From a virus (Duplodnaviria; Caudoviricetes), in the IMG/VR virus record IMGVR_UViG_3300024187_000002, positions 1-64,000 of that record: DNA of 64,000 nucleotides, one strand, 5' to 3'. Shown here one piece after another: positions 16,578-60,705 of this stretch; positions within the stretch are counted from its first letter, which is position 1; each line of letters opens with the position of its first letter. Made by a program: the position numbers and the translations under genes. The notes beneath the pieces were generated by a model. The model was not told the DNA's origin. It ran no database searches and saw only the letters and a program-made list of their open reading frames with translations.

Positions 16578-17235
16578 GGGGAAAAAAACCACAAAAACGA
16601 CGCAGAATCAAACGCAATCGTTTAATAACGCTAATACGTACGGCCAGATTACGCCTCAAGACACTCAAGATACCCAGAACTTCCGCGCTTGGAATCCCCA
16701 GATTGATCCGGGCCTTGCTTCTCAGTATGGTAATGCAAAGAATCAGTTTACTTCTTCATTCAATAATCCCCTTGGGGGATATCAAACAGCGCAAACCCGT
16801 GACGCTCAACAGCGAACAGGGCTGCGCCAGTTGAATCAAGATGAAGCTCAAGCATTTAGAAGCGGATCGTATGATGTAAATAATCAGAAGGCCGGACAGC
16901 TAGGAAGTCTAGCTGCTCTTACCGCGCCCCGTATTTTGCAAACGGGAAGTAGCGGAAGCGGAACAGGTTCAGGAACATCAACTCAGGTTCAATCAGGAGA
17001 CTTGTTAGGTCAGCTTATTGGCGCAGGGTCACAGGTAGGGAGTGCCGCCTTGTTGACCCTTACGCTATGCTGCGGGCTTTTCGTTTATAGTAGGACGCTA
17101 GACAAGCGGCCCGTTGCTTATCGCGCCGCGGATCATCTGACGGCATCCGCTGCCAAAATCTGCGAGCAGACGCACGGCTGCAAATTCGACAATCTCGGCC
17201 ACCCCTCTTGCGAGGTTTTGTATTCTCAGGGGTAA
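16576..17235 (+). CDS. Putative internal virion/DNA ejection protein (gp7-like) with read-through C-terminus
   Basis: MGKKTTKTTQNQ start, Q/N/G/S-rich, ends in a GxLxGxGxG-like segment; the last ~60 codons overlap the antisense HNH. Confidence 0.6.
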   Translation: MGKKTTKTTQNQTQSFNNANTYGQITPQDTQDTQNFRAWNPQIDPGLASQYGNAKNQFTSSFNNPLGGYQTAQTRDAQQRTGLRQLNQDEAQAFRSGSYDVNNQKAGQLGSLAALTAPRILQTGSSGSGTGSGTSTQVQSGDLLGQLIGAGSQVGSAALLTLTLCCGLFVYSRTLDKRPVAYRAADHLTASAAKICEQTHGCKFDNLGHPSCEVLYSQG

Positions 17236-17752
17236 ATTCATGGCCGTGGTCACAGTGAGTTTTTGCGGCATTTGTAACGGCGAAGCTAATACCGCGCATG
17301 ACGTTTTCTTTGTTTGTTACGGGTTCTATGTGGACTGGATTGATACAGTGACGCACACGGCACAAATGATCGGATTGAAGCTCGGCAGGGATTGGCTCAA
17401 CAACCAACCCATAGAGAAACCGATGGACGTGCACTACGCGCCGAGCCACACGCAAGTGCGCATACCCCGACGTTTTATGAATTGCGCCCGCCCACAGCCA
17501 GCAAGGCGTACCCTTAAAACTTACGCCAGCGTCGATTTTAATTTTAGGGAAAATCTGCTTAATCAGCCCGCTAGTCAGCCGTGTCGGCAGAGGCGGTTTT
17601 GGCTGTTGAAGCAACATTTTACCGGCGACAGCGTGGCATTCCTTGCAAACTGCGCGCGGCTTGCCATTCGACTTGCGATAATAATCGCTAGTTGGTTTAG
17701 GAGTCTTACATTTACTACAAGGGGTGAGTTGAGTAGAATCGTCGATGGGCAT
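17060..17752 (-). CDS. HNH homing endonuclease with zinc fingers
   Basis: CSKC..CKEC; CWLWAG..GYA..HRFLY..DHLCRVRHCINPVHIEPVTNKEN; KTHCDHGHEF..CRIC. Confidence 0.92.
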   Translation of the reverse strand: MPIDDSTQLTPCSKCKTPKPTSDYYRKSNGKPRAVCKECHAVAGKMLLQQPKPPLPTRLTSGLIKQIFPKIKIDAGVSFKGTPCWLWAGAIHKTSGYAHLRVARRVVHVHRFLYGLVVEPIPAELQSDHLCRVRHCINPVHIEPVTNKENVMRGISFAVTNAAKTHCDHGHEFTPENTKPRKRGGRDCRICSRASARRFWQRMPSDDPRRDKQRAACLASYYKRKARSIA

Positions 17753-19127: not shown

Positions 19128-20171
19128 ATGAAAATCTGCCATTTCTCTGCTTTCAATTCTTCAGGGATGCACAAGTGCGCTGAGACGTTAATGCGCGCCG
19201 AGCGCAAGTTGGGTCTCGATAGTCATCTGGTGAACATCCACGAAGTACCGTCTGAACAGTGGGACAAGTATGCGGATGCGGACATTTTCGTTCCGCATAC
19301 TCATTTCCCTAACGAGATGAGAAAGAGGCTGACGAAGCCTCTCAAGATGGTCTTCCTTGGTCATGGTACGCCTGAATATATCTTTCGGTCTTCTGTCGAT
19401 AGCGCCAAGCAAGGGTATGGGCATGGTGATGGCTTAATGCTCTGGATGTATTGGATGCAGAACGCGGATGCTGTCTGCACGTTCTGGCCGCGACATCAGG
19501 CGATTATGCAGTCGATGTGTGACAAGAACACGAGGGTTCACTTAATCCCGCTGGGGTTAGATTTGGACTTCTGGAAAAGCGGGGTAAGCAGGGGAAAGTT
19601 TGCCGGAAACCCTTCGGTGATGATCTGCGAGAACAGCCACTTTATGAAGTGGGCTTACGACCTGTTTATTGCGTGGCCGTGGGTTTACAAAGAGATACCT
19701 GACGCCTGCCTTCATGCTAACTACCTGCCGGTGGATCAGCATCGCTGGTTCTTCCCGCTGGTAAACCGAAACGGGGCAAGCTACGGCGCTCATATTTCTC
19801 CCTTAACGTTTGCACATGAAGAACTAAGAAACGTACTCAAGAGCGTCGATGTCTATGCGAACCTCGTACGTTACGGGGATCACAACCGCATGGGGTTAGA
19901 GGCGAGTATCAGCGGCGCAAAAGTAATCAGCTATCGCGGGAATCCCTACGCAGACTTTTGGATTCAGGAAGGCTCTCAGGTCGGCATGGCTCAAGAGTTA
20001 ATTCCTATCTTAAAGGGGGACGTAACCCCGCGAGTTAAGGAGACTATCGCCTCAGATGTGGAAATGGCTCAGGCGATGATTGAGGTTTACCACGAGGTTT
20101 TGAACCGAGGAATTATGCCGATAAAGGCGAAACAAGAGGATATCTTAGACGCCGCGGAGATAACCCTATAA
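19128..20171 (+). CDS. Glycosyltransferase, GT-B/GT4-like
   Basis: MKICHFS..SG N-terminus; C-terminal DVYANL..GLEASISGAKVIS resembles the GT4 donor-binding motif. Confidence 0.78.
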   Translation: MKICHFSAFNSSGMHKCAETLMRAERKLGLDSHLVNIHEVPSEQWDKYADADIFVPHTHFPNEMRKRLTKPLKMVFLGHGTPEYIFRSSVDSAKQGYGHGDGLMLWMYWMQNADAVCTFWPRHQAIMQSMCDKNTRVHLIPLGLDLDFWKSGVSRGKFAGNPSVMICENSHFMKWAYDLFIAWPWVYKEIPDACLHANYLPVDQHRWFFPLVNRNGASYGAHISPLTFAHEELRNVLKSVDVYANLVRYGDHNRMGLEASISGAKVISYRGNPYADFWIQEGSQVGMAQELIPILKGDVTPRVKETIASDVEMAQAMIEVYHEVLNRGIMPIKAKQEDILDAAEITL

Positions 20172-20725
20172 TGCATCAATTCTCTAACAACGCATTCAAC
20201 TTTGTGGACAAGACGGCGACGATAGGTCAGAACGTCACTATCTGGCACTTCGCCGTCCTGTTAGCCGACGTGAAGATTGGCGACAACGTGTCAATAGGTT
20301 CACGGACGGAGATTGGCCGAGGATCTACAATCGGCGATAACACGCGCATTAGTTCAGGGGTGTTCTTACCTTCAAACAGCATCATAGGGAAAAATTGTTT
20401 CATCGCTCCGAACGTGACGTTTACCGATGATCGTTACCCACGTGCCGGGAATGATTCGTACCACGCGGAACCTCCGATCCTTGAAGACGGCTGTTCCGTA
20501 GGGGCCGGCTCAGTCGTCCTTCCGGGCGTCACAATCGGCGCAGGGGCGCTTGTGGGGGCAGGGTCGGTCGTCACTAGGAATGTTCCGCCCAAGGGCCACG
20601 TACGGGGCGAGCCAGCACGAGAAAAGGCATACTCAGGGGTTCACCGAGAAGAGTTCCACGAGCTTGTAGCTCCAATCGTTATTGAACATTTCAAAAAGAC
20701 GGGTAGGCACATTCTACCTTCGTGA
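20171..20725 (+). CDS. Hexapeptide-repeat sugar acetyltransferase (WbpD/FdtC-like)
   Basis: IGQNVTI/IGDNVSIG/IGKNCFIAPNVTFTDDRYPR/IGAGALVGAGSVVTRNVP left-handed beta-helix. Confidence 0.9.
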   Translation: MHQFSNNAFNFVDKTATIGQNVTIWHFAVLLADVKIGDNVSIGSRTEIGRGSTIGDNTRISSGVFLPSNSIIGKNCFIAPNVTFTDDRYPRAGNDSYHAEPPILEDGCSVGAGSVVLPGVTIGAGALVGAGSVVTRNVPPKGHVRGEPAREKAYSGVHREEFHELVAPIVIEHFKKTGRHILPS

Positions 20726-21079: not shown

Positions 21080-23527
21080 ATGATCGTATCTCTTTCATCG
21101 TTCCAGATTTACCCTGCCGCCAATGCCGGGTACGATCCTGATAATCTTGAGGTGCGTTGGTGGTATAATCGAGGCTACATTGATAGCAGCACAGTCTTTG
21201 TTCAGGGCGGAAATGGTCAATCAGGATTCTACATAACGTCGCCTTGTACTGTAGACGGTGACGGAATAATTTCTGTTCCATCCACCGATCTGTTTTCGAC
21301 TTTAGACGCAGCCGATCCCAACCCTCAAAGCATTCAAATCTTTGGGCGGCTCTACAGCAACAACACTGCCAAGCAATATGTTACTGCCTATTCTTCGACG
21401 CCTACGGGTTGGGTGGTACAAAACTCTAGTCCGCTTACCTATGAAGATTTAGTCTTAGAGAATCAGTCGATCGTCCTCGCGAATCCATCGCCAACTTTCC
21501 CGACGTTCGCGCAGATGATTGCCTACATCAACTCGCTCACGCCAACGCCTTTAGCTAGCGATGTGGTTATAGGGCGCTCCCGTTTCCGCACCGCGCCCAC
21601 TGACGCTCTCGACCCTATAGCGGTAGAAGATAACGATCCTCGCGTTAACGCAGTTTACAATATTAAGACCTATGGAGCAGTGGGTGACGGCAACTCGTCG
21701 CTTTCATCTGCGCCGTGGCGTGCTCAATTCGGTATTCCATCGTCTGTGCCTAATGCTTACCTAGGTGGAACTACTTTCGGGACACTGACCTTTGTGGACG
21801 GAGTTGACACCAAAGATTACGTCGCAATGGCCTATGCGGTTTACTTATCAGGGCAGAATCGGGGAACGTATGTTCCCGGTTCAGGGGTGACGTTAGTTGA
21901 GTCCATTGAGATCATCATTCCTCCCGGTACTTATAATCTTAACAAACTGATTGGCTTGTACTCGTCTTACTACGTGACAGCTACCAATGCAGTGTTAGTG
22001 AGAAGCGGCGCAGGGCCGATCTTCAACATTCTTGATCCCATCAAGACCGTCATCTCTGGTATCCAGTTTCAGGGCGGCACAAATGCGATTTTAGTCGCAA
22101 ACGAAAATATCGACGCGACTGAATTGGATGTTACTCGTAACACTTTCCAAGGTCAGACTGATTATGCAGTTCGCGGCAGCAGCACGGCGACGGCAATGCC
22201 CAAGGCCCTGCGTGTTGTTGACAACAAGTTCATTAATACAGCAGGGGGCGTCTACAACACCAGCAACCAAGCAATTATTGAGAGCAACTGGTTTGAAATG
22301 ACCACCACAAATCCGCTGCTTTATAACGATGGTGGTCAGGCGTCTTTTTCTAAAAACCGGATTACCGCCGGAGCAGCCTCCCCACCTGCCGACTGGATTA
22401 TCAACGCCGGACAGTTAAGGGCCGAGTGGAACATTATCGGCGGGGAAAGTCCTGCGGGTAAGAGATTCCTGCGTGTAATTGCAGGTGCGCAATACACTTC
22501 AGTCCAGCATAATATCGTCCACTCAGATACTGACTCTTACAACATTCAATTAGACGTATATCCGATCAATGTGTTCATTGAGCATAACTGGTTTCAGTCA
22601 AACAATGGATTTATCGTTAACGATAATTACGTTGGGGCCACCGCGGGGGCGACAGCGAGCATAGGCGCGGCACTTGGCACAAGTAACAACACCTTTAAGC
22701 ATAACCAGCAGGGTAATTCTGCCACGCCGGTACTACCCTTTATCGCCTTCAAAAACGGCGGGCTATATTTCACCTTTGCGGGCACTGGTCTAGGCCGTAC
22801 TGCAACCACGAGAGAAGTAGAGGTCGTTTGGCCGGGAACTGATTTTACCAACTTATTTCCTGATGCCTCTGAGGGGATTTCCGGGAGTTGGACGGCCAGC
22901 GGAGTGTCCTTCAGCAATAACGCGGTAGTTGCCCCAGACGGCTCTACAACCGGCAGTAACATCGCTGGCAACGCGTTTGGCACACTGGATAGCACGAACA
23001 TTACTACAGTCGCTTTAGGGGGCGCAGGGGCTTACACCTTGTCTCTGTATGTGCGGAACTATGCCGCGGCGAATATTGTTTCGGTTTATAACGTAACTGA
23101 TTCTGTAGTCGTAGTTGCTCGCCCGCTTTCGGTAGGTACGGAGTGGATTCGGGAAATCATCTCGTTCTATGCGGCCACGGGAAAGACTTATATTGTTCGA
23201 TTCAACCTTGTCACAGGTGGATCGTTGAATGCGTGGGGATTTCAAATTAACCCCGGCTACCATGCGGCACCGTATTTGTATCGCGGAACGAGCGCTAAGA
23301 GCAGTGCGTTTCCTTTTGTAGGGCCAGAGCGTCCTGTTTATTATTCTGCGGCAATGCCCTCAACAGGTGACTGGAAAGCTGGTATGACCGTGTTCGCAAC
23401 TGCACCAACCGAGCAGGGAACGGCATTGAGTAAATACATTCTTCTAGGCTGGCGCAGAATAACTACCGGGTCAGGAAATGTTTTGAATACTGACTGGTTA
23501 GAGATGCGAACATTGACAGGGAACTAG
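21080..23527 (+). CDS. Tailspike/depolymerase (right-handed beta-helix, C-terminal CBM-like domain)
   Basis: YNIKTYGAVGDG pectate-lyase-like start, N/I-rich beta-helix coils, C-terminal NLFPDASE..GSW jelly-roll-like region. Confidence 0.82.
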   Translation: MIVSLSSFQIYPAANAGYDPDNLEVRWWYNRGYIDSSTVFVQGGNGQSGFYITSPCTVDGDGIISVPSTDLFSTLDAADPNPQSIQIFGRLYSNNTAKQYVTAYSSTPTGWVVQNSSPLTYEDLVLENQSIVLANPSPTFPTFAQMIAYINSLTPTPLASDVVIGRSRFRTAPTDALDPIAVEDNDPRVNAVYNIKTYGAVGDGNSSLSSAPWRAQFGIPSSVPNAYLGGTTFGTLTFVDGVDTKDYVAMAYAVYLSGQNRGTYVPGSGVTLVESIEIIIPPGTYNLNKLIGLYSSYYVTATNAVLVRSGAGPIFNILDPIKTVISGIQFQGGTNAILVANENIDATELDVTRNTFQGQTDYAVRGSSTATAMPKALRVVDNKFINTAGGVYNTSNQAIIESNWFEMTTTNPLLYNDGGQASFSKNRITAGAASPPADWIINAGQLRAEWNIIGGESPAGKRFLRVIAGAQYTSVQHNIVHSDTDSYNIQLDVYPINVFIEHNWFQSNNGFIVNDNYVGATAGATASIGAALGTSNNTFKHNQQGNSATPVLPFIAFKNGGLYFTFAGTGLGRTATTREVEVVWPGTDFTNLFPDASEGISGSWTASGVSFSNNAVVAPDGSTTGSNIAGNAFGTLDSTNITTVALGGAGAYTLSLYVRNYAAANIVSVYNVTDSVVVVARPLSVGTEWIREIISFYAATGKTYIVRFNLVTGGSLNAWGFQINPGYHAAPYLYRGTSAKSSAFPFVGPERPVYYSAAMPSTGDWKAGMTVFATAPTEQGTALSKYILLGWRRITTGSGNVLNTDWLEMRTLTGN

Positions 23528-23528
23528 C

Positions 23529-24032
23529 GTGAACGAAGATAAAAGCCACGCACAGGAAGCCGCCGATCTTCTCGGCGCAACCGAATCAGACCGACTGGCA
23601 GAGACGGCCAGCCTGCTGTTGTCTTACAGTTTTCTGTTTAATAATTGGAGTGAAGGCCCCGATGCAAACCTGAAGGTAGACGGCGAAACGGGGCGCATCG
23701 TTGCGGTAAATAAGCAAGCTGCTCCGATGTTTGGCTGTCACGCCACGAAGATGATTGGCACCTTGGTTGAGGACTGGATACCGGAACGACTAAGAGAACA
23801 ACATAAGAAACATCGCGAAAGGTATCGCGCATTCCCAACCAACCGCCCTATGTCATACGGCCAGCAGTTAGTCGCGTTACGCGCCGATGGTAAAACTGAG
23901 TTCCCTTGTTTTATCAACCTGATCTTTCAGTATGACGCTGAGAGACTAGTTGTTGGGGTTACTATACGACGGCTTGATCCGGCTGGCGTGAAAATGCCTC
24001 CAATGCAAACAGGGGGCGAGACGGTAGAGTGA
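23529..24032 (+). CDS. Stand-alone PAS domain protein (FixL-like)
   Basis: DANLKVD..GRIVAVNKQAAPMFG..MIGTLVEDWIPERLREQH..ERY..RPM..LRADG..FP aligns by eye with FixL-type PAS; no output domain. Confidence 0.85.
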   Translation: MNEDKSHAQEAADLLGATESDRLAETASLLLSYSFLFNNWSEGPDANLKVDGETGRIVAVNKQAAPMFGCHATKMIGTLVEDWIPERLREQHKKHRERYRAFPTNRPMSYGQQLVALRADGKTEFPCFINLIFQYDAERLVVGVTIRRLDPAGVKMPPMQTGGETVE

Positions 24033-24487
24033 AAGAGTTGCTTCCCTATGTTGGGTTATTGGCGCTGGCGCTGTCGATAGCTAACACCGTTTATCAGCGG
24101 CGCAAAGACGTGCAAGGTGATTGGCAAAAAAAGATCGATAAGGCAGTTGAGCCGTTTGCGGGACTACCCCAGATGGTGACAGAGATCGCGGCAGATTTAG
24201 CGGTCGCCAAGAAACAGTTGGAAGTGTTTTGGAGGGGCGTGAGTTTTTCATCGGCACAGGCTTTACATTCGCCACACACTAAAGAACTGGACGTGTTACT
24301 GGAAAAGTTCCAACGTGATGAGATTCAAAGTGAAAAGGACTTGTTCAAGCTTAAGGAAATGCTAAAAGATGTTGCGGAGAATGACCCTGAGCCTATGCGG
24401 AAGAAATTCGCACTGGATATTCTCACGCTGATTCATGTTCGATTTGAAATAGGGGGCGACTTGGTAGAATCGTTTCGACAAACATGA
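24029..24487 (+). CDS. Single N-terminal TM protein with coiled coil (holin/antiholin-like)
   Basis: LLPYVGLLALALSIANTVY TM helix; GTGA overlap with the PAS stop. Confidence 0.6.
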   Translation: MKELLPYVGLLALALSIANTVYQRRKDVQGDWQKKIDKAVEPFAGLPQMVTEIAADLAVAKKQLEVFWRGVSFSSAQALHSPHTKELDVLLEKFQRDEIQSEKDLFKLKEMLKDVAENDPEPMRKKFALDILTLIHVRFEIGGDLVESFRQT

Positions 24488-24560
24488 AGCAACTGAAAGA
24501 GAATCAAATCAGTAAAGGTTCGTCGCCTATGCAACCGCACCCGATGATAATGGTTACGAC

Positions 24561-24992
24561 ATGAGCGCCAATGCACCCGTTAAGTCCATACGCGAAGTCT
24601 CCCAGAATGGCTATAAACCGATTGGTACTATGCCAAAATCGCAGCAAGAGCCATTTGTGGAACGTATCAGGCGCATCCTGCCCCACCGAGAGGACATTCA
24701 GATGAGCGATGGCCGACAGATTAAGGGTGGTATTGTGATTCATCCGATTATCGCCACGGCGTTGTTGGGCGCAGTCATTGCTATCGGCCTCAGCGTTCGG
24801 TCGGAAATGAGTTGGCAACACGATCAAATCGTGAAGATAACCACCCAAAAAGAAGACGCGGAAAAGCGCGACGCAGAGCGAGCCGAAGAATTAAGCAAAC
24901 GACTTCAGAATATTGACGCGGTACAGATCGCCTTGGGGCGTGATATAGTTCGCGCTCAAGAAATACAGAAGGCTAAGAATTCCAGAAACTAG
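24561..24992 (+). CDS. Single-TM coiled-coil protein
   Basis: IVIHPIIATALLGAVIAIGLSV TM followed by heptads. Confidence 0.6.
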   Translation: MSANAPVKSIREVSQNGYKPIGTMPKSQQEPFVERIRRILPHREDIQMSDGRQIKGGIVIHPIIATALLGAVIAIGLSVRSEMSWQHDQIVKITTQKEDAEKRDAERAEELSKRLQNIDAVQIALGRDIVRAQEIQKAKNSRN

Positions 24993-25002
24993 GAGAAACC
25001 CG

Positions 25003-25320
25003 ATGAGCAACGGAGACCCCGATCCGATTTCAGGTGCGCCTTACATTATCATATGCGGGGGCCGTACCGGAGTCGCGCTCGCAACTACTTACGATGAAAA
25101 GGTTATTGCGGCAACTCAGTGCTCGGCACAGTTCGCTGCGTTCATGGGAATGGAGTACGGCGACTCTGACGACTTCATTTCAGACCTGCGACCTATTACA
25201 ACCATTCAGCATCAGTTAATGAACCACGCTATCGGCGTCCATAAACTCAGCCACGATGAATTGGATCAGAAGTTTGCGGATCTATTCGCGGCAATGGCGA
25301 CGATGGAGGGCGAGTATTGA
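25003..25320 (+). CDS. Hypothetical protein
   Basis: SD AGGAGA, 105 aa. Confidence 0.55.
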   Translation: MSNGDPDPISGAPYIIICGGRTGVALATTYDEKVIAATQCSAQFAAFMGMEYGDSDDFISDLRPITTIQHQLMNHAIGVHKLSHDELDQKFADLFAAMATMEGEY

Positions 25321-25612
25321 ACGGAGTTGTCATTGCTCGCTCTAAAGTCCATCCGCGTTCAAGCCTAGATGCGAGACTTTGCTTCTTACCGCCTAATTCA
25401 CGCGACCAATCGCTGATAACCTGAGTGCGCCCTTTCCACGTAATCCAACGATTATTGCGCCTGTTGCGTTGCTGCTCGTGGTTGGTAGCCCAGCGGCAAT
25501 TCGACGGTTCATAGTTTCCGTTGTTATTCTCTCTGTCGAGAGAGTGTTTAGGACTTGGCTTTGATCCCATATCGACCAAGAAGTTTTCGGCAAGCTTCCA
25601 CCGTCAGACTTC
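25247..25612 (-). pseudogene. Truncated HNH endonuclease
   Basis: ENFLVDMG..KHSLDRENNNGNYEPSNCRWAT..QQRNRRNN. The upstream frame reads GEV*RW where such enzymes usually have C-D/E-R-W; the N-terminus is missing. Confidence 0.75.
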
Positions 25613-25832: not shown

Positions 25833-25860
25833 GGGACGGGTCGAAAGGCCCGTCCTTTTT
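25833..25860 (+). terminator. Rho-independent terminator
   Basis: GGACGGGTC-GAAA-GGCCCGTCC followed by TTTTT. Confidence 0.85.
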
Positions 25861-26009: not shown

Positions 26010-26495
26010 CCACTAATTCACTAGTGAAACCGCAAGTGAATCACAAAACGGCTTACAGATAACTTTAAGTAACTGACCGTAACCCTAAGCAACTTTAGGT
26101 GATTAGCGTGTTACCCCTAGCGCAACCTCTAGTCTTACTTGTAAGACATTTTCTTAACCTAACAAAGCAATCCGTAACCGTTAAGGTCATCGACAGCCCA
26201 GAAGCGCGAATTCAAAGAACTATGTGCTCGAACGCGGCTTAATTATGATGCTGATTTACCGTGAAGAGTCACACGGTGTCACTTGGCAACACTATCACAG
26301 TGGAGCACTACCAGATGCTGAGAACTATACGCCTAGTTTTCACTTGTTGCAAGCACTTTGTTGTGCTATCTTCTGATTGTCCATTCGTACGGAGTCAGAC
26401 ATCCAAGATGCACTTGCGCCTCGACTCAAAAGGTTGGGGCGTTGGTGTCTTTACGCCACAAAGAGCGTAGACAACTCTAACAGTTCAGGACTACA

Positions 26496-26807
26496 ATGCC
26501 TCTTGAGATTATGGCGACTCTGCTGATTACCGTCTTAGCTCTGGTCGCTGCAAACTCAGTTCTACTTTGGCAACTCAGGAAGGACATCAAGAAAATGGCT
26601 GGAACAATTCTCGATCTGCAAAACGAAGTTACCGCACTAACGACCGTTGAAGAGAGCGCGGCTAAACTTTTAGACGGCCTCTCTCAACAACTGAAAGACG
26701 CGCTCGCGCAGAACGATCCCACCGCAATTCAGAAAGTCATTGACGATTTGGATGCAGGGAAAGCAAACTTGGCGGCGGCGATTACAAGGAACACGCCAGC
26801 AGCGTAA
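26496..26807 (+). CDS. Membrane-anchored helical protein
   Basis: N-terminal TM plus TVEESAAKLLDGLSQQL..DP..LAAAITRNTP, a pattern I recall from small phage proteins; TAGACA-18-TACAAT at 26468-26497. Confidence 0.6.
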   Translation: MPLEIMATLLITVLALVAANSVLLWQLRKDIKKMAGTILDLQNEVTALTTVEESAAKLLDGLSQQLKDALAQNDPTAIQKVIDDLDAGKANLAAAITRNTPAA

Positions 26808-26821
26808 CCAAAGGAGTTCAC

Positions 26822-27046
26822 ATGCTTCTCTTACTCACAGGCGGCTTAAGCCTTAGCGCGTTGCCGTTGCTTTTGGTCTACCTGTTAATCATCCTGATCG
26901 TCGTGTCAGTGATCTATTGGTTGATTAACTCGTTCGCGCCAGAGCCGATCAAGCGTTATGCGATTGCTGTAGTGGTCGTAATCGCGGTGATTTGCTTAAT
27001 CTATTTTCTACTTCAATTAGTTGGCGGCGCGTCGCCGCTTCGCTAA
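26822..27046 (+). CDS. Two-TM small membrane protein (holin-like)
   Basis: 74 aa, two hydrophobic helices, SD AAGGAG. Confidence 0.65.
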   Translation: MLLLLTGGLSLSALPLLLVYLLIILIVVSVIYWLINSFAPEPIKRYAIAVVVVIAVICLIYFLLQLVGGASPLR

Positions 27047-59229: not shown

Positions 59230-60705
59230 GTGATCAACGTAGATGCTCTTGAGGTAGAGATACGGCAAAAGTTCGCTAAACTTCGTAATCGGTTCCAAGC
59301 CGAGATTCCCGACACTTCCAAGCATCCCAACCAGCACGCCTTCGTCCACAGCACAGCTAAGCGTAACGTGATTCGCGCGGGCCGTCGCGGCGGGAAAACT
59401 TTTGGCACTGCTATACGTGCGGTCACTCGCTTTCAGCAAGGGGCGAGAGTGTTGTACGCTGCGCCGACTCAAGACCAGCTAGATCGATTCTGGGTTACGG
59501 TCTGCCGGTGTTTACAGAAGTCGATTGACTCGAAACAGATTTACAAGAACGAGACTCGGCACATCCTAGAAGTTCCCGGTACGGAGCAAAGGATTAGAGC
59601 TAAGACGGCGTGGAATGCCGACTCTCTCCGTGGTGATTATGCAGACGAGTTAATTCTTGATGAGTGGCAGCTAATGAACGAGGACGCGTGGAGGCTTGTG
59701 GGCGCTCCAATGTTGGCTGATAAGAACGGGAACGTGACGTTCATTTACACTCCGCCGTCCCTGCACTCGCGCTCAGCGTCTAAGGCTGACGACCCCCAAC
59801 ACGCGGCCAAGTTATTTAAGCGAGCCAAACAAGATACTACAGGTCGATGGGCGGTGTTTCACTTCTCTAGCCGAGAGAACCCCTACATTAGTCAGGACGC
59901 TATTGAGGAATTAGCACAGGATATGACGGCTTTAGCTTATCGGATGGAGATTGAAGCTGAAGACGTAGATCAGAATCCGGGCGCGTTGTGGACGCGAGAA
60001 GTTATCGAGAAAGGACGACTCGGAGAGAACGACGTACCCGACTTGGAAAGAATCGTGGTAGCCGTAGACCCGTCGGCTACAGCTGACGGTGATGAGGCCG
60101 GGATAACAGTTGTAGGCAGCGCTAATGGTCACGGGTATTTACTAGCGGATGTGAGCAAACAAGGTAGTCCTGCTCAATGGGCTGAAACAGCAATTTCAAC
60201 GTTTCACTATTACGATGCTGATCAGATTATCGCAGAATCAAACAATGGCGGTGAGATGGTCAAGCTAACTCTAAACACGGTCGATCCTCGCGTGCCCGTC
60301 ACGTTGGTTCACGCCTCAAGAGGGAAACAGACCAGAGCGGAGCCAGTAGCGGCACTAGCCGAACATGCAAGATTGCACCATGTTGGTAAATTTCCGTTGT
60401 TAGAGGACGAACTGTGTTTGTGGATGCCAGGGGATGATTCGCCGAATAGGCTAGACGCTTTTGTTTGGGGAGTGTCGGCGTTGAATTTATTCAAATGGCA
60501 AGAGAACCCGCGCAGTCGAAAAGAGATGATTCACCGTGCTATTCCAGATAAGTATAAACCCGAAACACTGCAAACGAATTACTCCCACGCTCAAGAGATG
60601 GCGGTGAGATTTCAATATGAACAAGCCAAGAAAAAGGTGCAGACTTCACGGGTATATGAGTTCAACGAGTGGCTTGATCCGGTTGAAGAACGAGACGAAG
60701 GCTGA
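59230..60705 (+). CDS. terL: Terminase large subunit
   Basis: AGRRGGKT Walker A, LILDE Walker B, VAVDP and NRLDA RNase-H acidic residues. Confidence 0.95.
   Translation: MINVDALEVEIRQKFAKLRNRFQAEIPDTSKHPNQHAFVHSTAKRNVIRAGRRGGKTFGTAIRAVTRFQQGARVLYAAPTQDQLDRFWVTVCRCLQKSIDSKQIYKNETRHILEVPGTEQRIRAKTAWNADSLRGDYADELILDEWQLMNEDAWRLVGAPMLADKNGNVTFIYTPPSLHSRSASKADDPQHAAKLFKRAKQDTTGRWAVFHFSSRENPYISQDAIEELAQDMTALAYRMEIEAEDVDQNPGALWTREVIEKGRLGENDVPDLERIVVAVDPSATADGDEAGITVVGSANGHGYLLADVSKQGSPAQWAETAISTFHYYDADQIIAESNNGGEMVKLTLNTVDPRVPVTLVHASRGKQTRAEPVAALAEHARLHHVGKFPLLEDELCLWMPGDDSPNRLDAFVWGVSALNLFKWQENPRSRKEMIHRAIPDKYKPETLQTNYSHAQEMAVRFQYEQAKKKVQTSRVYEFNEWLDPVEERDEG

Follow-up and report, generated by a model that had tools for sequence, protein, structure and literature searches.

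A conserved phage gene pair encoding a predicted heme-type PAS protein and a membrane-tethered partner

The window analysed here was a stretch of phage DNA made up of the first 64,000 nucleotides (bases 1-64000) of one contig of 72,321 bp (IMG/VR record IMGVR_UViG_3300024187_000002; contig G000, locus L004) that represents the genome of an uncultured tailed phage. Within it, two overlapping genes encode a small PAS protein and a protein with one hydrophobic segment, which is referred to here as the partner. The original prediction described a FixL-like PAS sensor coupled to two membrane proteins at the lysis-cassette position. All three of the open reading frames (ORFs) that it named, beginning at positions 23529, 24029 and 24561, were present, and the stop codon of the PAS gene did overlap the GTG start codon of the adjoining transmembrane gene. 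The two genes and their junction are listed below.

23529..24032, plus strand: stand-alone PAS gene of predicted heme type, 167 aa, GTG start
24029..24032, plus strand: 4-bp GTGA overlap between the GTG start of the partner gene and the TGA stop of the PAS gene, consistent with translational coupling
24029..24487, plus strand: gene for the membrane-tethered partner, 152 aa, GTG start

The GTG start codon of the PAS gene was located 1 nt past the TAG stop codon of an upstream 815-aa ORF. An identical 4-bp overlap between the PAS and partner genes was present in three related contigs (L001, L002 and L003).

Identity of the PAS protein

The PAS protein consisted of an N-terminal helix with an LSYSFL motif, followed by a PAS core at approximately residues 43-150. 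When the single sequence was compared with the Pfam PAS families considered (PF24820, PF08448, PF13426 and PF00989), its scores fell below the gathering cut-offs (24.8 versus 28.1 bits for PF24820; 21.9 versus 23.1 bits for PAS_4, PF08448); several of its homologues bear precomputed matches to PF13426, PF24820 or PF08448. Despite these sub-threshold scores, the family profile and the fold placed the PAS identity beyond doubt. In agreement with the proposal of a stand-alone PAS domain without an output domain, the 167-aa protein had no helix-turn-helix (HTH) match and its homologues were all 136-207 aa in length.

A search of 5.8 billion proteins identified 14 homologous clusters (58-100% identity, 149-207 aa), several of which were located on contigs of 21-114 kb; two were named 'PAS domain S-box protein' by the Joint Genome Institute (JGI). 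A profile was built from these 14 phage sequences and compared with the sequences in the PDB. Below an E value of 0.4 it matched heme-PAS proteins exclusively, namely FG214, a one-component HTH regulator from Fimbriimonas ginsengisoli (10jx; E = 1e-13 over approximately 90 residues), RmFixL from S. meliloti (1.8e-6), BjFixL (5.6e-5 and weaker) and EcDOS/DosP (0.02-0.4).

The AlphaFold2 (AF2) model of the protein had a mean predicted local distance difference test score (pLDDT) of 64.6, with values of 72-84 in the core. Behind a long N-terminal helix, its secondary structure elements were arranged in the order E E H H H H E E E, giving the five-stranded antiparallel sheet and flanking helices of a PAS fold. 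The top Foldseek matches to the model were FixL (8js5/8js6, E = 6e-8), 10jx, 1d06, BjFixL and EcDOS; non-heme PAS domains ranked lower.

The placement of His92 at the position of the FixL proximal heme histidine, which had been aligned by eye, was upheld by HMMER. His92 lies within PERLREQHKKHRERY and was aligned with the histidine of ...PEP.R..H......RY in RmFixL and BjFixL and with that of IPERFREVHQEHRAAY in FG214. In the latter alignment His92 corresponded to His156, His95 to His159, and Met108 to Met172. The 14 clusters were then combined with more divergent homologues from related loci in a 21-sequence alignment, in which identity extended down to 37%. Invariant in all 21 phage proteins were His92, Met108, Arg96, Arg106, Pro85, Pro103, Asn105 and His71, as were five of the six residues of the LSYSFL motif; Ser34 was nearly so.

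An exhaustive profile search returned 26,269 relatives, the best of which were almost all multi-PAS sensors of 350-3500 aa with 2-13 domains of the same subtype. In 614 PAS domains taken from 149 cellular relatives, the position of His92 was occupied by His in 574 domains, and that of Met108 by Met in 359 and by Ile, the FixL state, in 137. The LSYSFL helix and His71 were specific to the phage proteins and missing from the cellular relatives. On the strength of these alignments and the model, the phage protein is classed as a stand-alone member of the heme-PAS proteins, of the His/Met type, and by analogy with that class it probably binds heme.

The membrane partner and conservation of the pair

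The partner contained one hydrophobic segment (residues 4-22), after which it was predicted to be helical, and belonged to a family of 77 homologous clusters (83-213 aa), many of them on contigs of 58-114 kb. Of 25 homologues compared, nearly all had 0-1 basic residues before the transmembrane segment and 3-6 after it; the exception was two homologues with long N-terminal extensions, which had four basic residues before the segment. From this positive-inside charge distribution the partner is predicted to have its N-terminus outside and its C-terminus inside the cell (N-out/C-in), with approximately 130 residues in the cytoplasm. The AF2 model was all-helical (pLDDT 76), with a loop that carried the invariant residues His80-Ser81-Pro82 (the LHSP motif) and, after this loop, a confidently modelled C-terminal three-helix unit.

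The partner matched no Pfam or PHROG family, and no holin family was matched by it or by its 25 homologues. When its fold was compared with the PDB and BFVD using Foldseek, nothing was found at E ≤0.001; a wide fold search (VIA) returned only generic helical bundles (Z ≤7.2), and a feature search of the ESM Atlas returned only unnamed clusters (scores ≤0.83). There was no match to the partner in 50,697 deposited phage genomes, and the family was not found across 185,579 prokaryote species genomes. These results identified the partner as a phage-only family with no recognised family or fold. The suggestion that it is holin-like was not borne out, given the lack of a holin family match and the predicted cytoplasmic location of its domain. 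Homology between the partner and the product of the gene at 26496 in the window was considered and rejected on comparison.

Distant homologues of the partner at four loci (L015:5782-6309, L016:5836-6366, L014:2873-3655 and L013:5962-6462) retained an LHSPH...LD.L[LI]EKF core and had no PAS gene. In two other contigs, a protein of approximately 105 aa with three hydrophobic segments was encoded directly after the partner gene and overlapping it (L003:6358-6672 and L007:6507-6833; 51% identity). This protein was holin-like in size and topology and had no family match.

The proposed coupling of the PAS gene to a membrane protein gene was found to be conserved in phages. The PAS gene was immediately upstream of the partner gene in 11 of 11 distinct related contigs for which DNA was available, mostly with the 4-bp overlap (the related contigs listed are L001-L003 and L005-L011; L012 is the same contig as L005), and the same order was seen in two further contigs known as gene lists. 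The PAS gene itself was kept in at least 20 phage contigs. The pair was present on at least two phage backbones, the 63-76-kb type represented by the window and a 114-kb contig with a Mu-type portal (L003). Between the window and L001, the PAS proteins were 87% and the partners 62% identical. Where the synonymous rate (dS) could be estimated, the ratio of nonsynonymous to synonymous rates (dN/dS) was 0.02-0.2 for both genes, elsewhere dS being saturated; both genes are under strong purifying selection. It is somewhat likely that the PAS protein and the partner are in contact.

Neither gene product was recognised in deposited phages: a tblastn search of the same 50,697 genomes with the PAS protein gave no match, and at the DNA level (blastn) none was obtained for the phage or for the module region. 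When the PAS profile was searched against prokaryote genomes, only two distant bacterial PAS loci were retrieved, one from Sediminibacterium and one from an Anaerolineales metagenome-assembled genome. Since these loci were distant and no partner homologue was found in the prokaryote genomes scanned, the searches gave no clue to the host.

Lysis genes, flanking genes and genome context

Evidence that bears on lysis came from the gene neighbourhood of the pair in its relatives. In L003 the gene order was a GH19 endolysin, a 99-aa membrane protein with multiple transmembrane segments, an Rz-like spanin, two ORFs, the PAS gene, the partner gene, the terminase genes and Portal_Mu. In L006 a holin gene (phrog_9752, E = 6e-10) was located five genes upstream of the pair, and in a 66.7-kb contig a Phage_holin_10 gene was located three genes downstream of it. 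Those distant partner homologues without a PAS gene that were on contigs of high guanine-plus-cytosine content lay beside LysM-transglycosylase and NlpC/P60 genes and small transmembrane proteins. The association of the pair with lysis genes is therefore suggestive, as judged from gene neighbourhood in relatives. The proposed lysis-cassette position was supported in part: lysis genes were found near the pair in three relatives, but the window phage itself yielded no endolysin or holin family.

Two further observations were made in L003. The GH19 endolysin (L003:2116-3042) had a hydrophobic segment near its C-terminus, an unusual site for a membrane anchor in an endolysin. A 104-aa protein of this contig was considered as a relative of Mu gp26 and no similarity was found.

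The other features located in the phage are given below.

21080..23527, plus strand: upstream 815-aa ORF, outside the module; N-terminal region 31% identical to a 626-aa ORF in L002
24561..24992, plus strand: third gene, 143 aa, one hydrophobic segment at approximately residues 58-76, then a charged stretch
25003..25320, plus strand: fourth gene, 105 aa, acidic; 64% identical to L002:11419-11724 and common to L002 only
25833..25856, plus strand: strong terminator-like hairpin with a 10-bp stem and a T run
26468-26497: promoter-like site
26496..26807, plus strand: 103-aa protein, N-terminal transmembrane segment, helical remainder
26822..27046, plus strand: 74-aa, very hydrophobic small membrane protein; homologue in L001
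27395..27886, plus strand: 163-aa protein with a twin-arginine-like N-terminus (HRRSFIQ)
59230-60705: large terminase, Terminase_6C
62306-69355 (runs past the window end): giant ORF (2349 aa), SLT lytic-transglycosylase domain at the N-terminus

The 815-aa ORF had been called a tailspike. It was without a match in Pfam, PHROG or the PDB, which leaves its position and the 31% match in L002; it may be called tail-fibre- or spike-like by position only. The third gene, at 24561, likewise had no Pfam or PHROG match, and its one homologue, in L002, matched it only weakly (25% identity, E = 8e-4). Of the two transmembrane partner genes originally proposed, the 152-aa gene was thus conserved with the PAS gene, whereas the 143-aa gene was weakly represented in L002 alone and, on this distribution, is not a conserved member of the module. 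The distribution of the fourth gene, at 25003, places it outside the conserved module as well. The third gene was also considered as an inner-membrane spanin (i-spanin); this assignment was dropped, as there was no family match and gene 25003 does not encode a lipoprotein, although an embedded or overlapping lipoprotein ORF was not searched for.

Large co-oriented ORFs formed one long block from position 1 to approximately 25.3 kb, which is presumably the structural, late operon. The hairpin at 25833-25856 probably ends this operon, with the PAS and partner genes inside it. Antisense ORFs at 25247-25579 and 17060-17752, both on the minus strand, broke up the operon; two HNH_3 members were found by Pfam among the phage ORFs, and the two antisense ORFs most likely encode these homing-type HNH endonucleases. 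A region inside the structural operon, at 19128-20725, encoded a GT4-like glycosyltransferase (weak match) and a hexapeptide acyltransferase (E = 6e-31), the latter being common to L002.

Some 2 kb further on, behind the promoter-like site, were the three genes that start at 26496, 26822 and 27395. In L006, L008 and L010 the PAS gene was directly preceded by a homologue of 26496, and in L008 a homologue of 27395 (L008:4338-4835, with NRRTLLK and a lipobox-like ITAC) was also located upstream of it. Since their homologues accompany the PAS gene in relatives, 26496 and 27395 travel with the pair. To judge from their N-termini, the products of 27395 and L008:4338-4835 may be lipoproteins exported by the twin-arginine translocation (Tat) pathway, within a cluster of membrane genes near the PAS pair. 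The product of 26822 was holin-like in size only, with no match to a Pfam or PHROG holin.

In addition to the large terminase, a small terminase was found in the phage. Replication functions were encoded in a minus-strand block that included DnaB, single-stranded DNA-binding protein (SSB), the DNA polymerase III beta subunit and a YqaJ recombinase. The 2349-aa SLT ORF probably encodes an ejection or internal virion protein; it had a 1741-aa counterpart in L001. No direct repeats or tRNAs were found in the window, and there was no sign of lysogeny in the data for phages that carry the pair. By large terminase, the closest deposited virus was Methanosarcina virus MetMV (MK170447, 67.8 kb), with 59% identity over 74% of the protein. 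As the window phage has bacterial-type genes (SLT, DnaB, SSB and the beta clamp), either the stated archaeal host of MetMV or its relationship to this phage merits scrutiny. MetMV also had a giant ORF of approximately 3000 aa, and no PAS or partner homologue was found in it.

Possible role and comparison with known systems

We tentatively propose that the pair is a conserved, phage-only, two-gene sensor module that is expressed late and that would make a late membrane event, or the timing of lysis, depend on the host's respiratory or redox state. In this proposal the pair would be expressed from the distal end of the late operon. The soluble cytoplasmic PAS protein would bind heme b, with His92 as the proximal ligand and Met108 as a switchable distal ligand by analogy with FG214, and its redox state, or the binding of O2, NO or CO as a gas ligand, would reshape the PAS core and the LSYSFL N-terminal helix. 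The partner, made by translational coupling and anchored by one transmembrane segment, would hold its helical domain in the cytoplasm within reach of the PAS protein, and the conformational change in the latter would alter the contact between the two. The partner would then act on a late membrane process, most plausibly by timing or licensing lysis, as a membrane-tethered cytoplasmic effector that resembles a releasin in architecture and not in sequence.

A role of the pair in lysis is possible but somewhat doubtful. The fullest form of the proposal, in which a genuine heme-based gas or redox sensor with a novel membrane-tethered output licenses or delays lysis according to host respiration, faces the cytoplasm and is unrelated to holin-antiholin pairs or to the Mu releasin, is more doubtful still and is advanced as a speculative scheme.

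Several observations weigh against the proposal. With respect to lysis, the 91 ORFs of this phage included no endolysin or holin family, save for the SLT domain in the 2349-aa protein, and the 84 neighbouring ORFs of ten related loci gave a single holin-family match, the Pfam and PHROG results being nearly all blank. The partner had no holin, antiholin or releasin family match, and its fold matches were generic helical bundles. No longer or fused forms of the partner were found, including a PAS-partner fusion, although this is a weak argument. With respect to heme, the main distal ligand of FG214, His175, aligned with Gly111, and Arg220 of FixL aligned with Gln112 (Arg in some relatives); the PAS model was only moderately confident (mean pLDDT 64.6), and the cofactor is a predicted one. 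With respect to the pairing, the window partner was 74-78% identical to the partners of L006-L010, but the corresponding PAS proteins were only approximately 41% identical. Read from these identities, PAS clades and partner subtypes have been exchanged by recombination in or close to the 4-bp junction while always remaining adjacent, and this shuffling of subtypes argues against a tightly co-evolving interface.

The best-surviving alternative is that the module acts in host takeover and has no link to lysis. The PAS protein would be a decoy that heterodimerises with host multi-PAS kinases or regulators, silencing or hijacking a redox or oxygen response, and the partner would only localise or sequester the PAS protein. 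PAS domains commonly dimerise, and the phage protein has no output domain; its closest cellular relatives are multi-PAS sensors with 2-13 domains of this subtype (26,269 matches), and since most neighbours of the pair are unannotated the lysis context is thin. However, a pair expressed from the far end of the late structural operon would come late for host takeover, and the LSYSFL helix and His71 are phage-specific and missing from the cellular relatives. Nor would a decoy explain why the PAS gene is so strictly paired with the gene of a membrane protein found only in phages, and no host target can be named. A decoy function is considered unlikely.

Less likely again is a PAS protein that has lost heme binding and that, with a different small ligand or with no ligand at all, works for the membrane partner as adaptor or assembly factor. 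A histidine at the proximal position is found in many PAS domains that bind no heme, neither His175 of FG214 nor Arg220 of FixL is conserved, and the confidence of the model is moderate. Against this, the profile matched heme-PAS proteins only, and the His and Met ligand positions were invariant across 37-100% identity; the invariance of both His92 and Met108 is hard to explain without a cofactor.

A function in superinfection exclusion or membrane protection, in which the partner blocks DNA entry or the holin of another phage and the PAS protein regulates it, is improbable. Exclusion is a frequent function of small phage membrane proteins that have a cytoplasmic domain, and the module is mobile between phage backbones. 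However, as the partner was not found in the scan of 185,579 prokaryote species genomes, it was not seen in prophages, the typical home of exclusion genes; moreover, the pair is placed in the late operon and neither protein has a family match to known exclusion proteins.

Finally, the PAS gene might be a degenerate, non-functional fragment of a host kinase, as a single domain without an output that scored below the Pfam cut-offs could suggest, but a lone unconserved fragment is excluded by its retention in at least 20 phage contigs, its invariant residues, the conserved length of 136-207 aa in 21 aligned homologues and the dN/dS of 0.02-0.2, and the chance of such an origin is negligible.

With its phage-borne PAS protein, the pair adds a new member to a known class; no description of the partner or of the pairing, nor of any module of a PAS protein and a membrane partner, was found in the literature searched. 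Known mechanisms of lysis timing involve the accumulation of holin, the proton-motive force or periplasmic antiholins. If the proposed sensor module is real, it would be a first example of a virus that directly senses O2, NO, CO or the intracellular redox state, and it would make it possible to test directly, in soils and sediments, whether host respiration influences when lysis occurs. The partner, as a phage-only family with no known fold, has in the PAS protein a clear candidate binding partner. The PAS protein, being small and stand-alone, would also offer a simple model of how a heme-PAS domain signals to another polypeptide, and it might serve as a biosensor scaffold.

In phage T4, RI acts as a periplasmic sensor and binds that domain of the holin T which lies in the periplasm. 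The likeness of the PAS pair to T4 holin T and RI/RIII is one of concept only, namely that a small sensor, by acting on a membrane protein, makes the timing of lysis depend on a signal, and no homology of the pair to Phage_holin_T or RI was found in Pfam or PHROG. The original prediction had drawn on this T4 system. As the PAS protein and the partner are both predicted to face the cytoplasm, the periplasmic RI/T model does not apply to them.

A closer architectural parallel to the partner is the Mu gp25 releasin (DUF2730, PF10805), a membrane-tethered cytoplasmic protein that is needed for release of the signal-anchor-release (SAR) endolysin (PMC9239132). Both proteins have a single N-terminal transmembrane segment, an N-out/C-in topology (predicted for the partner) and a cytoplasmic domain, with no periplasmic part. 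In L003 only, the pair is flanked by the endolysin/spanin genes on one side and the terminase genes on the other, the spot that gp24 and gp25 occupy in Mu. In contrast to the 152-aa partner, which is paired with a PAS protein, gp25 is 99 aa in length and has no sensor partner. Homology between the two was rejected (hhalign probability 1.2%), with no match of the partner to PF10805 at E ≤0.5; such a match was absent even for P0234, which had a precomputed PF10805 hit.

The only known phage PAS sensor found in the literature searched was VqmA of vibriophage VP882, a PAS-HTH quorum-sensing receptor for the autoinducer 3,5-dimethylpyrazin-2-ol (DPO) that controls a lysis-lysogeny switch (PMC8284805). 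The two are alike in that a phage-encoded PAS sensor links, or in the present case would link, a chemical cue to a lysis decision. VqmA has a DNA-binding HTH output, whereas the PAS protein described here is predicted to be of the heme type and to be expressed late, and has no HTH.

Among cellular proteins, FixL (B. japonicum, S. meliloti) and EcDOS/DosP belong to the same PAS subtype and have their proximal His at the same position in the F-alpha helix. They are fused to kinases or cyclic di-GMP (c-di-GMP) enzymes, whereas the phage PAS protein is stand-alone; at the distal side, the O2-binding Arg220 of FixL is replaced by Gln112, and the position of Met108 is occupied by Ile in FixL.

The closest counterpart is FG214, which was the best sequence match and a top fold match. 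Mutagenesis and crystal structures have shown that His156 is its proximal heme ligand and His175 its main distal ligand, the latter position being Gly111 in the phage protein; Met172 is an alternative distal ligand that was seen in a dithionite-soaked crystal, and use of FG214 as a biosensor was shown in proof-of-concept experiments (bioRxiv preprint 10.64898/2026.03.15.711900). Through a switch between His and Met ligands, the conformation of FG214 responds to the redox state of the iron or to a bound ligand. FG214 and the phage PAS protein share the pattern IPER.RE.H..HR..Y...P..R.M and have a similar hydrophobic motif in the helix before the PAS core. They differ in their output: FG214 carries an HTH in the same chain, whereas the phage PAS protein has none and is paired with a membrane protein instead.

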